Shown here piece by piece: positions 9,810 through 62,974 of a DNA stretch of 64,000 bases. How positions within the stretch are numbered: position 1 is the first letter of the stretch; every line of letters starts with the position of its first letter. The stretch spans positions 1 to 64,000 of the forward strand of contig KE561161.1 of assembly GCA_000442015.1 (NCBI GenBank). Reading direction: 5' to 3'. A program made the position numbers and the translations under genes. The DNA is from Rozella allomycis CSF55 (taxonomy: Eukaryota). The notes beneath the pieces are model-generated. The model was not told where the DNA came from. It searched no databases and saw nothing but the letters and a program-made list of their open reading frames with translations.

Positions 9810-10433
9810 ATGACAGGTAACATAGGAAACTGAATTTAATATGTAGTTAAAGTCTGTTCTAAAGTGTACAAGGTTCCTCGTCGTTGTTATGAAAAGGCCC
9901 GTCTTGATGCTGAGTTGAAACTTGCTGGTGAATATGGTTTAAGATGTAAACGTGAAATTTGGAGAGTTGGATTCATGCTTGGAAAGATCCGTAAAGCTGC
10001 TCGTGAATTGCTTACCCTTGAGGAAAAGGATCCCCGTCGTCTTTTCGAAGGAAACGCCCTTATTCGTCGTTTAATCCGTATTGGTGTTTTGGATGAAAGC
10101 AAAGCCAAACTTGATTATGTCCTTGGATTAAAAATCGAAGATTTCTTGAACAGACGCCTTCAAACACAAGTTTTCAAACTTGGCTTGGCTAAGAGTATTC
10201 ACCATGCTCGTGTCCTCATCCGCCAAAGGCACATTAGGTAAAATTTTTTGTTTTCTTTTATTTCCAGAGTCGGAAAACAATTAGTTGATATTCCTTCATT
10301 TGTTGTTCGTTTAGACAGTGCTAATCACATTGATTTCGCCTTGACTTCTCCATATGGTGGCGGACGTGCTGGACGTGTTAAGAGAAAGCGTGCTAAATCA
10401 TCTGGAAATGGAGCTGACGAAGATGAAGAATAA
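9810..10433 (+). CDS. RPS9: 40S ribosomal protein S9 (uS4)
   Basis: [39 protein letters not shown]; introns 9817-9846 and 10238-10267. Confidence 0.97.
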
Positions 10434-16350: not shown

Positions 16351-17666
16351 ATGACAAAGGATCTTAATAGTTTGCCCAAGACGAAAAGAAATTTTGTTTC
16401 CTATTTTGAAAAAATCAACAGATGTTTAGATGAGAGAAAATCTAGGGTTATGGATCTTTGTGACAAATCGAAAAGCATGTTTGTTGAAGCGTCAAAACCA
16501 AAGAAATTATTTAAATTAATGCACCATGAGCCGAATGTACATGATGATAATGATATCCCGATCCGAATTAACAAAACAGGGATGAGAGAAATAAAACCCC
16601 ATAGGCACGTTAAGGGGAAATTAAAGAGAGAGGCAGTGGATTTGAAACTTACAAATCCAATAGAGAACTTGAAATACAGAAATAATAAAGTGAATTGTGA
16701 AAACTTTTTCCCATCAAATATCAAAAGACTTCCAAAACGAACAAGGCAAACCATGTCAGCCCCAGCGTCTGGATTTCAAGTAACAAGCGATAATTGATTA
16801 AATTTAGTTTCGAGTTTTAAAAGATGAATATTTTTCTTTTCAAATGGAAAATCATCCAACGTTATCTCGAAGACCACAAACAAGTTATAGAGAATTTAAA
16901 CTACCCGAAGAAAAAGAAATTGAGAGATATCATTTCATCAACATAGTTTTTAAGGATGCGGTTAAAAAGCGAGAACAATTCAATCTTGGGCAAACTGGTC
17001 AAGCTTTTGAGACTCGATCACTGGATTCCCCTCCCATCAGTTACGAAGAGAATTCAATCTCTTTGAAGTCAACAAAGTCAAACTTTTCCATTAAATCTTT
17101 TCCATTTGAGGAGAAAAGAAAACAGATTTTTGAACAGTATTCAAAGAAAAGTCCAAAGCCGGTAGAAAAAGAAGTTGTGGCAAAGAAATACCCCAAAAAG
17201 AAGAAAAAACCATCTTTTTCAAGAAAGGCTGACAAAGTAGGACCTTCATCAATAAGTGGCGAATCAAGTAATGATCAACTGGAGCAATTCCCTGAATCCT
17301 TGGAGGCTATTCTTCAAACTTTAACATCAAAGGAAAAGTCGATCGTTAAAGAAACCTCCAGAGTTGTTCAAATACCTGAAAACGACGCACTTAAAGGCGT
17401 AAAGTTGATTGATTTGCTTAATTTAACAAATACACGCGAGATTCTAAAAGCTCGACGGTAATTAAAACATTTTGTTAATAAAGACTGTGGCGACGTTCCT
17501 CCAATACAGAAAGAGCAATGTTTTCAAAAGCATTCTTGGAAAACTTGTAAAGTTATTATTAAAGTCTAGAAATAGGAAGCAACAACAATCCGCCATTGGC
17601 GAAATACACGAGCAAGAAGAATTAGAAGAAATGCAGAAAGAAGAAAAACAAGTTACGTTCGAGTAA
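16351..17666 (+). CDS. Hypothetical basic protein (4 exons)
   Basis: ORFs joined by 26-29 nt GT-AG introns. Confidence 0.55.
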
Positions 17667-17695
17667 CTTTAGAATTTTATTTTATAAATTTATGT

Positions 17696-18454
17696 TTAAG
17701 ATCGTAAATCTTGTAATCTTTGTTGCATATTTTCTTCATCCACTAGTTGCTGATCTGAAGACTTTAGTTTGGTTGCAGGGGCAACAATGCCTTGCGTTAA
17801 TTCGTTCAGGACTTTGTCAACTTCTTCCTCAGCCTCTTCTTCTATTTCTTCGTCGTCCATTCCAAGCGTTTCTTCCATCATCTCTTCCATAATCCCTAAA
17901 TCTTTACAAAGTTAATTTCTAACCCGCTTTCATCATTTCTTTTGACATGTCCATCATGGTCTTTTGCATTTCAGGGAGACGTATCAAGTTATTGGCAAGC
18001 TTCATTATAACTGTACTCTTTTGAATAACACCAGCAACTTTAATCGATGCTATATTTTCTAAAGGCAATATCTTTACATACTTGTTGCTGAAGCTGCATG
18101 GACAAAGAGCTAAGCTGGGCTTTGTTGGTATGAAGGCGCTCTCTAGTCCTCTTTGATCTGACTAATTCTTTGGCCAAGGTTCTGCAAACTACTTGCCCAC
18201 CAGCCTGCTTTGCGGCAGTCTTAATCTCTCTTTTTACTTTAGCCTCCTGAGATTCAATATCTAAGTTGAAAGCAATGTCCTATTTCGTACTTCGTATCTG
18301 CCTGTCCAACTTGCGTTCTTCTGTTTTAAGTTGCTGTTTCCATTTTTTAACCTGTATTCTATGGATAATATTAAAATTTAATCGTTACAAAATTAAATAT
18401 AGATCACACCTGCTCCTCCAATGTAGGGCCTGAACCGAAAAGGGTTTTCATCAT
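17696..18454 (-). CDS. VPS24: ESCRT-III subunit Vps24/CHMP3
   Basis: EQVKKW, LAKELVRS, EMMKAGIMEEMM, EAEEEVDKVL, RLQDLRS; 4 introns. Confidence 0.93.
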
Positions 18455-18594
18455 ACCCGCAAATAAGAAAATTCAAAAACAAAATACAGGCAACCCAAAA
18501 ATTTAACTTCATCGTGTTTATGAATTATGAATTAAATTTATGTTTTAAGTGGTATAAGAAATCAGGAAATACATAAAGTAATGAAAACAAAAAA

Positions 18595-33045: not shown

Positions 33046-34420
33046 TTAAGTTTGCAAGCCATATTCATTGATATAATCTCTAAATTCTTCTTCGACGGTA
33101 TCATCTGATAGTCCATATTCATCTAGACAATATTTATGCCTTCCATGCTTTCCCTTTGAACATTTCGGATGGTTTTTACCTGTGGGTTATGCATCAGATA
33201 GTCTTTCATTTTAAGTTTAATATCTTCGGTTATAACTAGTCCGATTTTAGAATATATCCTTTCAACGATGGAAATGGGATTCTTCATTAATTCTACATAA
33301 TTAATGTCAATGTACTGCATTTGATTTGATTTAGATTTGTAGTCTTTTATACTTGACACAACCATTTTGCAATAAAGAAGACAAAAATTTCCAATATCTC
33401 TTCTATCTACCACTCTGTCTGCCAAACAATGATGAACAAAAGAAAGTAGCAGTTTACACAACGAACCAATGACAGTTTTAGGATGTCGGTGTGTAAAAAT
33501 TAAGAAACTATTAGGAAAAAATGATTTTAATGTTGGCAGATATAATGAATGAATCGGAGCTTTCAAGATCCAATGTGAATTTGGCTCGAATCCTGATTGA
33601 AGCATCTTTATGTATAACTGCAAAAATTTGTAAATCTCTTCTCTATTAGGACAATCAAGCTGTCTTTTAGCTATTTCCGGGCTGAGGATACTGCCAAATA
33701 TAAATAGTCCAAATTGCCTCAACATGATCACATACTCCTCTTCTACTGTGTGTGCATCATTGTAGTGACTTGCTAACATATTTTGGACTACTTCAGGTGA
33801 ATATCGTAGCTGATAATCTCTTGCTTTTTTAAAATTAATGAACCAAGGATGGCTACTATCTAACTTCTTAGTAGGCGGTTTCACAGGAGAATACGATGCA
33901 AAAGACATTTCATAATATAAAGGGGATCTTGCATTTAGATCGCACGACAATAAGTTTTGCAAAAGTGTGCTTCCAGTTCTAGGCAATCCGGTAATTATCA
34001 ATTGCTGTTTCAGATCAATATCCGCTATTTGAGGGTTATCCACAATAAAGTCCATAAACGATTTTCTTTGATTCATCGCCAAGAATCGATTTACCTGGCA
34101 GTAAGAAATTGTTCTAAAAGTTCTGTTATTACCATTCGTCCAATTACAGTGAATTTCCCGGGAACATTGGCAAGATCAAGTATAATCTCTGTAGCGACTT
34201 GCTCGGTTAGTTTTTGAGAACCAAATATCTTTGTATGCGACTCATCAACTAATAATTTAGGCAGCAATTTTCTAAAGAAACTACAGGCAATTACGTACTT
34301 AGGGCTAATTGGCAACAGTTGAATCCCGAGAATCCAAAAGCAAATGTCTCCAATTCTGTTGATTATCCATAATAGAATGAATGAAAACTTGAACTCTTCA
34401 ATCAAATACTTGCGCGACAT
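33046..34420 (-). CDS. Sulfotransferase (Sulfotransfer_3 type)
   Basis: IITGLPRTGSTLL PAPS loop, WILKAPIH, FTHRHP, C-terminal NPQGKHGRHKY..YGL after splicing. Confidence 0.9.
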
Positions 34421-38297: not shown

Positions 38298-39622
38298 ATG
38301 AAATCGTTATTGTTTCTTACCCTTTTTAATTCCTTGGCTCAGAGTAGAATTTATTTCTCTGAAACATTTTCTGATAATGATGGATGGCAAAACCGTTGGA
38401 TTCAATCGACCAATGTAGATACTTATGGAAAATTCGAGAGGAAGTAATGTTATTTTAATACAGTTATCAAGCAATGGGCTTTTCCATGGTGATTATGAAG
38501 AGGCATATGGTTTAAGAACCTCTCAAGATGCAAAATTTTATGCGATAGCTTCTAAATTCAATCAAACCTTTGACAACAAGGACAAAGATCTTGTTGTTCA
38601 ATTTACTGTAAAGCATGAGCAAAACATTGATTGTGGTGGAGGTTACGCTAAGATTCTTTCATCTAAAGAAAATTTGTCAAAATTCAGCGGGGACACGACG
38701 TATTTCTTAATGTTTGGTAATGAACTCAATTGAATAAGAACAGGGCCGGATATTTGCGGAAGTTCTAGGAAAGTCCATGTGATAATAACGTACAAGGGAG
38801 AAAATAAGTTGATAAAACACGAAATAAATGCCCCTTCAGATGAATTAACTCATCAATACACCTTGGTTATTAAACCCAATCAAGTAAGAAGGTTTCTTTG
38901 CGATAATTGACTTTTAAAGTTTTGATTGATGGTGAAATCGTCCAAGAAGGGAATTTTCTGGAAAATTGGGATTTTCTCCCACCAAAGCAAATCCCAGATC
39001 CTGAAAAGAAGAAGCCATCGAATTGGGCGGACGAAAAAGAAATAATTGTAATTTGTTTTCATATATTTGAAAGGATCCTAATGACAAAAAGCCAGAAGGA
39101 TGGGACGATATACCACAAACAATTCAAGACGTGAATGCCGTTAAGCCGGAAGATTGGGATGAAGAATTAGATGTAATGAATTTCTTCTATATTGATTAGG
39201 GTGAATGGGAGCCACCTCAAATTCCGAACCCAGAATATAAAGGAGAATGGCAACCGCGACGAATCCCTAACCCTGATTACAAGGGTCCATGGGTTCAGCC
39301 AATGATTGATAATCCTGATTTTATTCCAGATGAGGAAATATATAGATTTAGTGACATGGGTGCTATTGGTTTGGATCTTTGGCAAGTCAAAAGCGGGTCC
39401 ATATTTGATAATTTTATCGTTACCGACAGTATTGAAGAGGCTCATGAATTCGGCAAAAACCACTGGGAAAAATACAAAAATGCCGAGAAAAAGGCTAAAG
39501 AGCAGCTAGATGAAGAAAATAGGAAAAAGCAAGCAGAATCGGCTCCTCAACAAGACGCATCTGAAGCAGAAGTCGGTGAAGAAATCGGCGAAGATATTAT
39601 TGATGAACATGAAGAACTTTAA
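38298..39622 (+). CDS. CALR: Calreticulin
   Basis: Signal peptide, TSQDAKFY, KHEQNIDCGGGY, MFGPDICG, P-domain repeats, GLDLWQVKSGSIFDN, C-terminal HEEL, no TM segment. Confidence 0.95.
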
Positions 39623-49390: not shown

Positions 49391-51851
49391 ATGACTCAAG
49401 AAAAACCGATCTGGTTTGCACCAAAAAACGAAAAAGAACCAAGTGGTCTTCAAGTGAAAAATTCATTCAAGAATGAAAAAGTATGAAAAACATTTCTAGC
49501 TTATAGGTTCCTTTTGTTCCTCAACAGGGAAAATTGATAAAGTGGTATTCCTGTGGCCCAACTGTTTATGATGCAGCACATATGGGGCATGCTAGGACTT
49601 ATATTACCTTTGACATTATAAGAAGAATTTTAGAAGACTATTTTGGATATGATATATATTATGTTATGAATATAACAGATATTGATGACAAGGTTGGAAT
49701 GATTTGAATTTAACAAAGATTATTATAAGAGCACGTCAAAAATATTTGTTTGATGAATATTTAAAGAAAAACGTTACTTTGGAGGAATTAAAATCGGATA
49801 TCATGGAAGCCGCTAAATTTGTTGCAGAAAAGTATCTGAATTTAAAAGATTTAAAACAAAATGAATTAATTGAAAAAATATCTGCTATTATTTCCGAAGA
49901 TCCTAAAGTTTTGATGCATAAAAAGTCAATTCTTGCAGGCCTAACATCAAAAAGTCAAACCCCTGTCGAAATAGCTGAAGCCGCTAAAGACATTTTAACT
50001 TACTGGCTAGATGACAAAATGGGTGCATCTGTCACTGACATTAAAATATTTAGAGATCTTTCTGTCCACTGGGAAAAAGAATTCATGAAAGACATGGAAT
50101 TGTTAAATGTAAATAACTTGTTTAAAGTAGAAAAGGTTTTGCCATCTGATGTGTTAACACGTGTGAGTGAATATGTACCTGAAATTGTCGATTTTGTTCA
50201 AAAAGTGATTGACCATGGATTTGCGTAATTGATTTAATAATTTTCAATGAGTTACGAAGCTGATGGATCTGTTTATTTTGATACTCAAGCCTTTGATAAA
50301 GATCCCAACCATTCTTACTGCAAACTGAAGCCTAGTGCCAAAGGCAACGTAAAATTGATGGAGGAAGGTGAAGGATCATTGTCTTCACACACCTCGAGTA
50401 AAAAATCTCCAGCTGATTTCGCCCTTTGGAAAAAATCCAAGCCTGGCGAACCAGCATGGAACTCTCCTTGGAGCCAGGGTAGGCCAGGTTGGCATGTTGA
50501 ATGCTCAGCAATGGCTGGTGATGTTCTCGGCTCATGCCTGGACATTCATTCCGGTGGTATAGATTTATGCTTTCCCCATCATGATAACGAACTTGCTCAA
50601 TCTGAAGTAATTTGAATATGCCTAATTGACCAGGGTTTCTTTAACAATAAGCAATGGGTGAACTATTTCCTTCATGCGGGTCATTTGCACATTGAGGGAC
50701 AAAAAATGTCTAAATCACTAAAAAATTTTATTACTATAAGGGAAGCTTTGGCAAAATACAGCAGTCGCCAGATTAGACTGTTGTTCTTGCTTCATAGCTG
50801 GTCTGATGTTTTGGATTATAAAGAAAGCTCAATGAAAGAGGCTATTAATGTTGAGCAAACATTATTTAATTTCTTCTCTAATGTTCAAACAATCATTAGA
50901 GAGGTTTCTCTGTTGGATATTTCACAAAACAACGATCATGACTTTAGAAAGAAAGAAAAAGATTTGGTTGAATTGTAAAATATGATTATTTAATTAAAAG
51001 TTTATTGGATAGACAAAGTGACATTCACGAAGCGCTTTGTGACTCATTTAATACACCACTTGTTATGAGAGCGTTACTTGACATTATTTCTCAATGCAAT
51101 GTTTACATGAAAGAAACTCCAAAGCCTTCTGTTTATCCATTAAAAAAAAGTGCTGATTTTGTTACAAGAATTTGCAAAGTAAACAATAAAGTTAAACTAA
51201 AAAAAGATATTTGGGNTTAAATTAAAAAAGATATTTGGAGTGATTGAGACAAGAGGAACTATTGGATTTCCTGTCCAAACGTCTTCTTCCTCTCTTGAAG
51301 AAAGTCTAATTCCTTATCTTAATACTTTGGCTGATTATCGCGATAAGATTAGAGACTTGGCAATCAATAATGCAGATTCCAAACAATACTTGATATTGAG
51401 CGATAAATTAAGAGACGAAGATCTTTTAAATCTTGGAGTTCTTTTGGAAGACAGAGATGGCTCAACCAAAGTAAAATTGGTGGACAAGGATTTTGTCGTC
51501 AAAATGAGGCAAGAGAAAAAGCAAGTAGACAATTTTATCTTTTCATGATTTAGCGTGATGAAGAAAGAGAGAGAAATAAAGCTCTGGTGGCCGCTGAAAA
51601 AGAAAGAAAAAAGCAAGAAAAAATTGAAAAGGCAAAAATAAGTCCTAATGAAATGTTTAAAATTGGTGATTATAAAGACTTATTTTCAAAATTCGATGAA
51701 ACGGTAAAATTATTCACTTTTTTGTTAGAAGGGATTTCCAACCCATGACAACAAGGGTGAAGAACTAGCAAAATCAAAAACGAAAAAATTGAGAAAAGAA
51801 TTCGACGCGCAATTAAAACTTCATGATCAATACATAAATGGCACCCTTTAA
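49391..51851 (+). CDS. CARS1: Cysteinyl-tRNA synthetase
   Basis: [38 protein letters not shown]; 9 introns. Confidence 0.97.
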
Positions 51852-54511: not shown

Positions 54512-55455
54512 TTATTGACTAGGCTGTATATTCGATTTCGGTTTTCTGGGAATAGGTGGTGCGTATTGATATCCCATTGATGGATTTGCCATTGATGAAT
54601 TTGCATTTATAGCCATATTTGGAAACTGCATCGAATTAGGATGAATGTTGCCTATGGCAGGATTACTGACAAACCCTTGATTACTAGGAATATATTGTTG
54701 ATATGGGATGTGCTGATTCTGCAACTGTGAAGGGGGTGGTTGAGCTGTATAGGGTTGAATCGGTAAGTTTAAGGTAGTTTGATTTTCTAAAGGCATATCT
54801 TTCAAAGGAGCAGATTCAGCTGCCGTTAAATTTTTATCGATAACTTCTGTTTGTTCGATTTCAGGAATAAATTTTTCTATTCATATTGCACAAATTACAT
54901 ACTTATANCAGAACTTACATACTTATATCTTCGGAGCTTAATGGGTGGATGGTATTTCCTAGATTTTTCGGTGGTTCTTTTTCCTCTTGTCCTGACAAAG
55001 ATTGAATGTTTGATAACTCACGAATGAAGTAATCAGCCAAAAATCGTATTTTTTCTAATGAGGGAATTAGGGTGTTAATTGATTGTTGGTCTTGCAAGTC
55101 AGATTTACTTGAATCTGTTGAGTAAATATATAATGTTTACCTTTCACGATTATATTTAATTTGTTCATAGTTAACAGTGCATGCTGTACGTCGTTGTCGT
55201 CTGTCAATAGAATTAAATCGCCATCACTAAAAAAGAGGGCTCAGATATTACCTTCATCTATATAATTTAACTGGTAATTTTCTGGATTATCAGATAAATC
55301 TCTTTTGAATAAACGTTGCATAATGAAGCAAAGTTCATTGTAGGTCTATTTTGTCTGAAATTAGTGGTTACCAAATCCTTATTACATAAAGAGACACGCC
55401 TAAATGTGGAGCCAAATCGTGCTTTGATAGTTACCATACAATCTCCTCCCTGCAT
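54512..55455 (-). CDS. TFG: TFG-like protein (PB1 + coiled coil + P/Q-rich tail)
   Basis: Spliced IKARFGSTFRRVSLCNKDLTYNELCFIMQRLF...YIDEDGDLI matches the TFG PB1 domain as I recall it; one GT-TG intron. Confidence 0.8.
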
Positions 55456-60876: not shown

Positions 60877-62974
60877 TCTCTCACGCAAATACGTTCAATA
60901 ATAGACAATTACAATTACCAAGACATGCCCAATTGGGTATGATGCATGAAGGACAACAGCTAGTAGTTCCAAAGTCACCATGGATTAATGCTGATTATTC
61001 GAAAAGGTCAATANTTATTCGAAAAGATCAATAACGAGCATAGTCGGGTTGAGTTCAGTTAATAGAAAGCTAAATACTTTTGAAGACCAATATCGCGCAT
61101 TGAAAAGTACTTTCAATGACCATGACGTTAATGCGGATCTTAGACTTTCAAATATACTACGAAAGATAATTCCAAAAGAATCAAAAGAAGCACGAGAATA
61201 TTGGTTCAACATTCTGAGAAGACTGACTAAAGATGATTTACAGAACCAGCAAACAATAAATCTTGCGTATTATATTATGAAGGAGGGAAATATCAACGCA
61301 TCTAAATACGTTAATGGGAAGTCATCTTTTCATAGTAGCGAGTATAAGAAAATTGAAATCTTTTGGATTCGCAAACTTATTGAAAAGGGAAGACTAGATA
61401 AACAAAAAATCGCCCAACAAGCCACGCAGATCGGAGATTTAGAAATCTTAAAGTTACTGGTTTCTACACCTGATGATATCCAAAAATTTAATCTTTTACA
61501 CATAGCACTTGAGTCCAAACAAGATCAATCCTTATCTTACTTGACTGACAAAGTTCCATTGAAATCTGAGAACTTGATTTACGCCTACAATTCAAAAAAG
61601 CCAGAGATTATTATTATGGCCGAAAAATATTTCTTCAAATTTGACTTTAACAAGCGTAATTTCGAGGAACAAAAATCAATTTTTGAGTACCACTTGGAAA
61701 ACGAAACATGGAATCGTTTAAATAACATTCTCTCCAAGGAATTTATAGATAAATTAGCCAAGGAGTTTACTGATAAGAAAAATATGCCTTTGGCTCTTCT
61801 TTTAATGAATGCCGATTCGATTCATTATGATAAAGAAATTCCTTCTTTAATTTGGCACAAAGAAGAAAGCTTTAACTATAATAATTATGAAAAAGAAAGG
61901 ATTCTTCTCAAAATAGGAAAAGTAAGTGGTTCGGAGCTCGTTAAGAGAGCTGTCTTGAGATATGCTGACAAACATCAGTCCAAATTACTGATGATTGAAT
62001 TTTCTGATAGCGTCAATTTAGAGACAGCTATATCCTCAGACGCTCTTCGTTTGTCCGTGTTCATGATTCGTGACAAGAATGTTCCCGTTAGTTTAAACGA
62101 GTTAATGCTAGTTTCTAAATTGAAAATGCATGAAAGAAAACCAAAATTTTACAGTTTTATTATGCGGGAATATTCTACTCAGTTCAAATATATGGATGCC
62201 AAGACTAAATATGAGCAACTTTTAAAAATCGCTGAAAGCAAAATGCCGCAAAAATGGAAAATTATTCGAGATCTCTTGGACGAAGGCAATAAAAATAGCA
62301 TGCTACTCCAAGCTAACTTCATGAGGGTCATCAAATTAGCGATACCCAATGCATCGGTTGAAAAGAATGGCCGTTTTATTTCAATTAATCAGCCTGGCAA
62401 ACTGGATGAAAAATGGACTGATTCTCTCTCCAAGACTTTACTTTTATTGATTATGGAGGGCACACCAGCAAGACATGATCCCGTTAAGCTTTCATTAGCA
62501 ACACATTCAATGAAGGCTGGTGATGAAACCACAGCTACATTACTACTATCTTACATTGCCACACCCGAGATCAAATCTATGGCAGTGGATGAAGCAATTC
62601 GATTAAATCAATTTGATTTTTTCAACCATTTAGTTCATAAATACCACACGCCTATTAGTGCATTCGCTTTGACAAAATACTCAAGTTCCAACGATCTTTC
62701 TGCAATACAAAACATTCAGTCAAAGTATTTTTCGGGATTCAAGAAGAAATCTGTCGATGAGCAGGTTAATGACTTGTTATACTTTGAGAAGACTCAGAAT
62801 TGGAAATTCATTGATGCACTTTTAAATACAAAGAATAATTGGACCATTTTTGGCCAAAGAGATCTTCAGACACGCATATTAGATTCTTCTTTAACTAATC
62901 AAGAAAAAAGAGAGATGTTATCAGTCTATATACAAAAGAAAAATGGGGCAGATGCCGCCGCAGATCGCAAATAA
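60795..62974 (+). CDS. Secreted intronless helical-repeat protein
   Basis: Signal peptide MKDTYHLIIFLFLHAVRS; collapsing the duplication at N61014 joins it in frame to the 641-aa ORF. Confidence 0.65.

Follow-up and report, generated by a model that had tools for sequence, protein, structure and literature searches.

In stwintrons, an internal intron interrupts the donor, the branch-point element or the acceptor of an external intron, which makes two splicing reactions compulsory, according to the accessible text of the reports (PMC8469720, PMC6616335, PMC5639578). In the reticulon-like gene of Lipomyces starkeyi, a complex intervening sequence is described, in the available part of the publication, as being removed in a single standard reaction or in two successive reactions (PMC7138796). 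Intron lengths in Microsporidia also vary, with 76-nt introns in the Poly-A-binding and S23 genes compared to short introns of approximately 23-30 nt, and the accessible portion of the same source gives two S23 introns of approximately 30 nt for Rozella (PMC6349667). The locus described here is the VPS24/CHMP3 gene of Rozella allomycis CSF55, whose first intron of 58 nt can be read as one short intron inside another. It lies in the window, which is the whole stretch of DNA that was analysed (64,000 nucleotides, positions 1 to 64,000 of contig KE561161.1), and which is AT-rich with a G+C content of approximately 34%. Rozella allomycis is a parasite of Allomyces with a compact genome, and Microsporidia form its sister lineage.

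The VPS24 intron resembles the stwintrons of Pezizomycotina ([D1,2], Hypoxylaceae, Aspergillus) in that two U2-type GT..AG introns would be nested in a fungal host and excision of the inner one would leave a canonical outer one. Unlike in stwintrons, the outer donor and acceptor of VPS24 are intact, and the putative units measure only 28-30 nt. With both of these splice sites intact and a branch-point motif too weak to be decisive, the VPS24 intron was not filed as a stwintron in the strict sense. The closest match to a composite reading is the Lipomyces starkeyi case which, as far as its available text goes, also has nested U2 units at one intron position that are removed in one or two reactions. 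However, the donors abut in L. starkeyi and both routes were shown there by RT-PCR, whereas in VPS24 the putative inner unit begins after 21 nt of the outer one, the host belongs to the Rozellomycota and the introns are much shorter.

Recursive splicing and intrasplicing in animals involve kilobase-scale introns, and ratchet sites consist of an AG directly followed by the regenerated GT. As in recursive splicing, removal of the VPS24 intron in pieces via internal splice sites would leave no trace in the mRNA. Ratchet-type recursive splicing is nevertheless excluded because no AG in the 58-nt sequence directly precedes a GT (AA comes after the first AG, and the second is the 3' end itself). The long introns of Microsporidia are comparable in being rare, exceeding the usual length two- to threefold and belonging to a compact genome with tiny introns, here that of the sister lineage. 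In the portion of the source that is accessible, each is excised whole and spliced better than the short introns, with an internal region that is conserved and a branch point that is extended (PMC6349667). The VPS24 sequence, in contrast, has no significant fold.

The VPS24 gene and its exon model

The VPS24/CHMP3 gene is a five-exon gene on the minus strand at positions 18454-17696, and its exons joined by coordinates produced an open frame of 205 aa. The introns measured 58, 30, 28 and 28 nt from 5' to 3' along the gene. The features are as follows.

18410..18454, minus strand: exon 1, with start codon at 18454-18452 and 15 codons; the N-terminal motif aligns with four relatives
18352..18409, minus strand: intron 1, the 58-nt intervening sequence, phase 0, donor GTGTGA and acceptor ATACAG; junction gap-free against L001-L004
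18389..18409, minus strand: putative outer unit, 5' part including the donor, 21 nt
18359..18388, minus strand: putative inner GT..AG unit, 30 nt, donor GTAACG and acceptor CCATAG
18352..18358, minus strand: putative outer unit, 3' part including the acceptor, 7 nt
18291..18351, minus strand: exon 2, 61 nt
18261..18290, minus strand: intron 2, 30 nt, phase 1; position common to relatives L001 and L004
18078..18260, minus strand: exon 3, Snf7 profile positions 20-76, CHMP3 match (E 1e-8), 100% identical to public protein P0001
18050..18077, minus strand: intron 3, 28 nt; gap-free against VPS24 of Coemansia and Kickxella
17924..18049, minus strand: exon 4, Snf7 profile positions 82-120
17896..17923, minus strand: intron 4, 28 nt; its removal retains the conserved K-A-G-x-x-E-E-M stretch of the relatives
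17696..17895, minus strand: exon 5 and stop codon (17698-17696), Snf7 profile positions 123-159, CHMP3 match

Exons 3, 4 and 5 matched the Pfam Snf7 profile in this order. The best match among solved structures was CHMP3, with CHMP2A behind it (E 1.4e-3), and the nearest named relatives of the gene product carry the name VPS24. The lead of CHMP3 over CHMP2A together with the ordered Snf7 matches justifies the gene name VPS24/CHMP3. The public protein that exon 3 matches is from the same organism, Rozella allomycis CSF55.

Four relatives of VPS24 were used for comparison, all of them loci on metagenome contigs (L001-L004) with 47-58% identity, while scans of prokaryote genome contigs and viral contigs for VPS24 relatives gave no matches. 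The position and phase of intron 2, after ...RQ[IL]R, are common to L001 (186-242) and L004 (approximately 2837-2902), which supports the exon model, and the presence of this site in two distant metagenome relatives indicates that it is old. At the position of intron 1, all four metagenome relatives lack an intron and their coding sequence reads straight through. Excision of 58 nt from VPS24 produced a junction without gaps against all four, while excision of 49 nt inserted three residues. These two removals were the only ones of the six GT/AG combinations in the stretch that kept the ATG-led N-terminus in frame with exon 2.

The public protein, with a length of 199 aa, implies introns of 49, 30, 40 and 40 nt compared to the 58, 30, 28 and 28 nt found here. 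The present model was gap-free against six relatives at all three disputed junctions. The third and fourth introns of the public model, at 40 nt each, remove residues conserved across all relatives examined, therefore this model looks like an ab initio error. Overall, the public VPS24 model looks mis-spliced at three of the four introns, and the 58/30/28/28 model appears to fit better.

Nested anatomy of the first intron

On this gene model, the 58-nt sequence that separates exons 1 and 2 of VPS24 is a genuine spliceosomal intron, in which a standard 30-nt intron is predicted inside a standard 28-nt one. The 58 nt contain just three GT dinucleotides (starting at positions 1, 3 and 22) and two AG dinucleotides (50-51 and 57-58). 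Positions 22-51 make up the inner 30-nt unit, which stops 7 nt before the 3' end, and the remaining 21 and 7 nt make up a GT..AG unit of 28 nt. The outer GTGTGA and ATACAG are both contiguous in the DNA. Removal of 30 nt and then of 28 nt equals the removal of 58 nt, thus the mature mRNA would be identical by either route.

The earlier note on this DNA had described the first VPS24 intron as twice the usual size, with a normal-looking 30-nt intron (18388-18359) whose removal leaves a 28-nt GT-AG intron of typical length. These points held, as the coordinates and lengths were exact and the inner unit as a whole scored like real introns. The note had also taken two-step splicing here not to depend on an interrupted splice signal, and neither the outer donor nor the outer acceptor is interrupted.

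No strong branch-point motif was seen in the 58-nt sequence. One copy of the motif yTrAy is formed across the junction left by the inner unit, 5 nt from the 3' end, and another is intact 11 nt from the end; the motif is a weak one, found in 27 of 64 short introns. A stem that draws the splice sites together was considered and rejected, since the minimum free energy was -6 kcal/mol (z -0.46) and 66 of 200 shuffled sequences folded equally well. An Rfam search for an RNA gene within the intron matched only a nearby tRNA-Ser. A signature of insertion or duplication was also looked for, and no direct or inverted repeats were present at 18300-18470. With up to 3 mismatches allowed, the inner unit occurred nowhere else in the window, and the similarity between the inner and outer units was ordinary, with 31% of 1830 intron pairs aligning equally well.

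Intron lengths and the 71-nt Cdc42 intron

Intron lengths were determined on the window only with our own gene finder, using a flat intron-length prior and a moderate penalty; counts from ORF joining and runs with a loose penalty were left out as too noisy. A total of 95 introns were predicted, of which 72 were 25-31 nt long and 23 were outliers. Two outliers were verified as real, the 58-nt intron of VPS24 and a 71-nt intron of Cdc42, and the window contained no second verified intron of 50-62 nt. The very narrow peak at 25-31 nt, with a usual intron length of approximately 27 nt, makes the 58-nt intron a true outlier. No published description of the Rozella intron length distribution was found in the literature searched.

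The introns of Cdc42, also on the minus strand, measured 28, 27, 71 and 27 nt, with the 71-nt intron at 28397-28327 and a junction of ...DTA|GQED.... The long exon was identical to Rozella allomycis Cdc42, and the whole public protein agreed with the exon model. Internal GT..AG pairs in the 71-nt intron spanned only 18 and 53 nt, hence it contains no nested unit of standard size, cannot be divided into introns of standard length and has to be excised in one piece. The spliceosome here can thus span more than 31 nt, and removal of the 58-nt intron in one step is clearly feasible. The 71-nt intron is T-rich with a pyrimidine-rich run, whereas the short introns are mixed in A and T, and a run of this kind is absent from the 58-nt sequence. 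Since the 71-nt intron is T-rich and the 58-nt sequence resembles two ordinary short introns, there is room for a separate mode of long-intron recognition.

Inner unit compared with chance

Models of the donor, the interior composition and the acceptor were built from 64 short introns of the window. When intron positions only were scored, the inner unit had a log-likelihood ratio of 9.5, which placed it at the 83rd percentile of the 64 real short introns; among 562 GT..AG decoys of 25-31 nt taken from 34.5 kb of exons, not one scored as high. With flanks included, that is with three bases before and two after the unit, the inner unit was at the 41st percentile of real introns, and its score was equalled or exceeded by 8 of 552 decoys. 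The re-formed outer unit of 28 nt was at the 22nd percentile by intron positions only and at the 70th with flanks. Taken alone with flanks, the splice sites of the inner unit scored low: the 3rd percentile for the donor, the 5th for the acceptor and the 2nd for the two combined. Upstream, the unit is flanked by T-rich intron sequence and not by the usual A-G. The outer donor was equally weak, being at the 3rd percentile with flanks and below all 61 real donors by intron positions only.

To assess chance, 20,000 random 58-mers with the outer ends kept were drawn for each null model under each scoring scheme. Of these random sequences, 5-10% contained a nested pair in which both units were 25-31 nt long, and 2-3% contained one with a GTA donor. 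Pairs scoring at least as high as the observed one were found in 0.05-0.5% when intron positions only were scored and in 1-2% when flanks were included. A chance origin of the nested pair is unlikely, though not overwhelmingly so, and the pair was noticed after the fact.

Splicing in one or two steps

The anatomy, reading frame, junction homology and rarity of length of the 58-nt intron are demonstrated above, and the order and number of splicing reactions that we infer from them would be as follows. Scored whole, both units would pass as normal introns of this genome, which makes removal in two steps possible, and the intact outer donor and acceptor permit removal in one reaction or two. In the one-step route, a single reaction would use the outer donor and the last AG. 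In the two-step route, the inner 30 nt would be removed first and then the re-formed 28-nt unit. The two-step route probably accounts for a substantial share of the transcripts because the inner unit has the length and signals usual for this spliceosome, and it would be optional and not enforced by length. That both routes operate, with a substantial share of two-step removal, is the best reading, with a rough probability of 0.45. It agrees with the gap-free junction, the narrow length peak, the normal scores of the units, the rarity of such a pair by chance (0.05-2%) and the absence of a pyrimidine-rich run like that of the 71-nt intron, and L. starkeyi offers a precedent. Against it stand the weak inner sites with flanks, the 5-10% of random sequences with any suitable pair, the precedent of the 71-nt intron and the lack of an insertion signature at the locus, while the yTrAy motif is too weak to separate the routes.

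The 58-nt sequence may instead be an ordinary long intron that is removed in one reaction, its internal GT..AG pair being a product of chance or a relic that the spliceosome ignores. This is the default for any intron, and the window itself offers an example in the Cdc42 intron without a nested unit, as does the 76-nt intron of Microsporidia, approximately 3× the usual size and spliced better than the short ones in the available part of the report (PMC6349667). The frequency of suitable pairs in random sequences and the low scores of the inner splice sites once flanks are counted also agree with it. Moreover, internal AGs at 4-9 nt from the 3' end are common, with 16 occurrences among the 64 short introns, so skipping of a first AG is normal. 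However, a pair as good as the observed one is rare by chance, both units score in the normal range and 30 and 28 nt add up to exactly two standard lengths. The outer donor, being among the weakest, also has no obvious edge over the inner one. Removal in one step only is thus a quite possible explanation which falls short of even odds and is placed second. The public model could also represent the true mRNA, with a 49-nt intron that begins at the next GT, two bases further down, and ends at the first AG (CCATAG), three additional residues and no nesting; the inner GT would then be an unused alternative 5' site that shares the acceptor. The public protein reads so, the frame stays open and the same annotation source is right for Cdc42 including its tiny introns, but the donor required is the lowest of all, with a score of 1.60 that is below all 59 real donors (sites with flanks) and -0.1 in a second scoring with flanks. 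The three residues are found in none of the four metagenome relatives, and the spacing between the N-terminal F and the conserved W would be 16 residues compared to 12-14 in six relatives by our own count. Together with the deletion of conserved residues by the 40-nt introns of the same model, this makes the 49-nt intron improbable.

The earlier note had further proposed that a limit on intron length enforces splicing in two steps, and this part was weakened by the 71-nt Cdc42 intron, which makes the length-enforced form of the two-step reading unlikely. In its plain form, the spliceosome would be incapable of spanning 58 nt and the inner unit would have to go first. The very narrow length peak, the sum of two standard lengths and the absence of the T-rich make-up of the 71-nt intron point in this direction. 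Nonetheless, the 71-nt intron has no standard nested unit and is still removed, and the outer donor and acceptor of VPS24 are intact prior to removal of the inner unit, so that obligatory two-step splicing is the least probable of the explanations considered. A version that accommodates Cdc42 would have the spliceosome measure length, with the 58-nt intron as a size-enforced twin that arose when an existing intron acquired another within it. An intron of double size would then be removable efficiently only as two nested introns, and the T-rich 71-nt intron would escape via a separate mode; this is very improbable, though slightly less so than the plain form.

If the intermediate of the preferred reading, in which both routes operate, exists, VPS24 would hold a nested spliceosomal intron from beyond the Dikarya, in the sister lineage of Microsporidia, and at the smallest size scale known for nested introns. 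It would have implications for how information-poor introns are recognised, with length acting alongside motif, and for the question of whether an existing intron can receive a new one. What is firmly established goes less far and consists of the narrow peak of intron lengths at 25-31 nt, the two verified outliers and a public VPS24 model that is apparently mis-spliced.

Other predicted introns and gene arrangement

Several outlier predictions were rejected as lengths of real introns. In VPS24, the predictions of 105 and 44 nt were wrong parses of what are in fact the 58- and 30-nt introns. Four further outliers, in the genes for ribosomal protein S9, Maf, a WD-repeat protein and calreticulin, resolved to standard introns with more exon. 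The outliers in the Maf gene and, on inspection, in the WD-repeat gene each resolved to an intron of 26 nt. In the ribosomal protein S9 gene (9810-9846, plus strand), an apparent first exon of 7 nt (ATG and four bases) is followed by a 30-nt intron, and the 98-nt intron of the gene finder was false, having bridged both. In the calreticulin-like gene (38884-38909, plus strand), the 26-nt stretch that needs removal begins with GT and ends with TG, not AG. The exons on both sides align to a solved calreticulin chain without a break in residue numbering, one up to 163 and the other from 164, and the TG end reflects a non-canonical 3' splice site or else a wrong base in the assembly. The predicted 52-nt intron at 51704-51755 is possibly 25 nt long, as the frame permits both lengths, and several of the remaining outlier predictions bridge neighbouring genes.

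A predicted 46-nt intron in a gene for a low-complexity protein (54877-54922, minus strand) has the donor GTATGTAA twice, 20 nt apart, and contains one N. The second GTATGTAA is a putative donor that would yield a standard 26-nt intron, but in another frame. A total of 8 isolated N bases were present in the window, at least 3 of them inside predicted introns (e.g. 1857-1882, 54877-54922 and 61007-61038), and these may be ambiguous or polymorphic sites. Finally, the genes are packed very tightly, with the stops of two convergent genes 29 nt apart beside VPS24 (17666-17696) and two predicted genes on the same strand adjoining without a spacer at 33122-33123.
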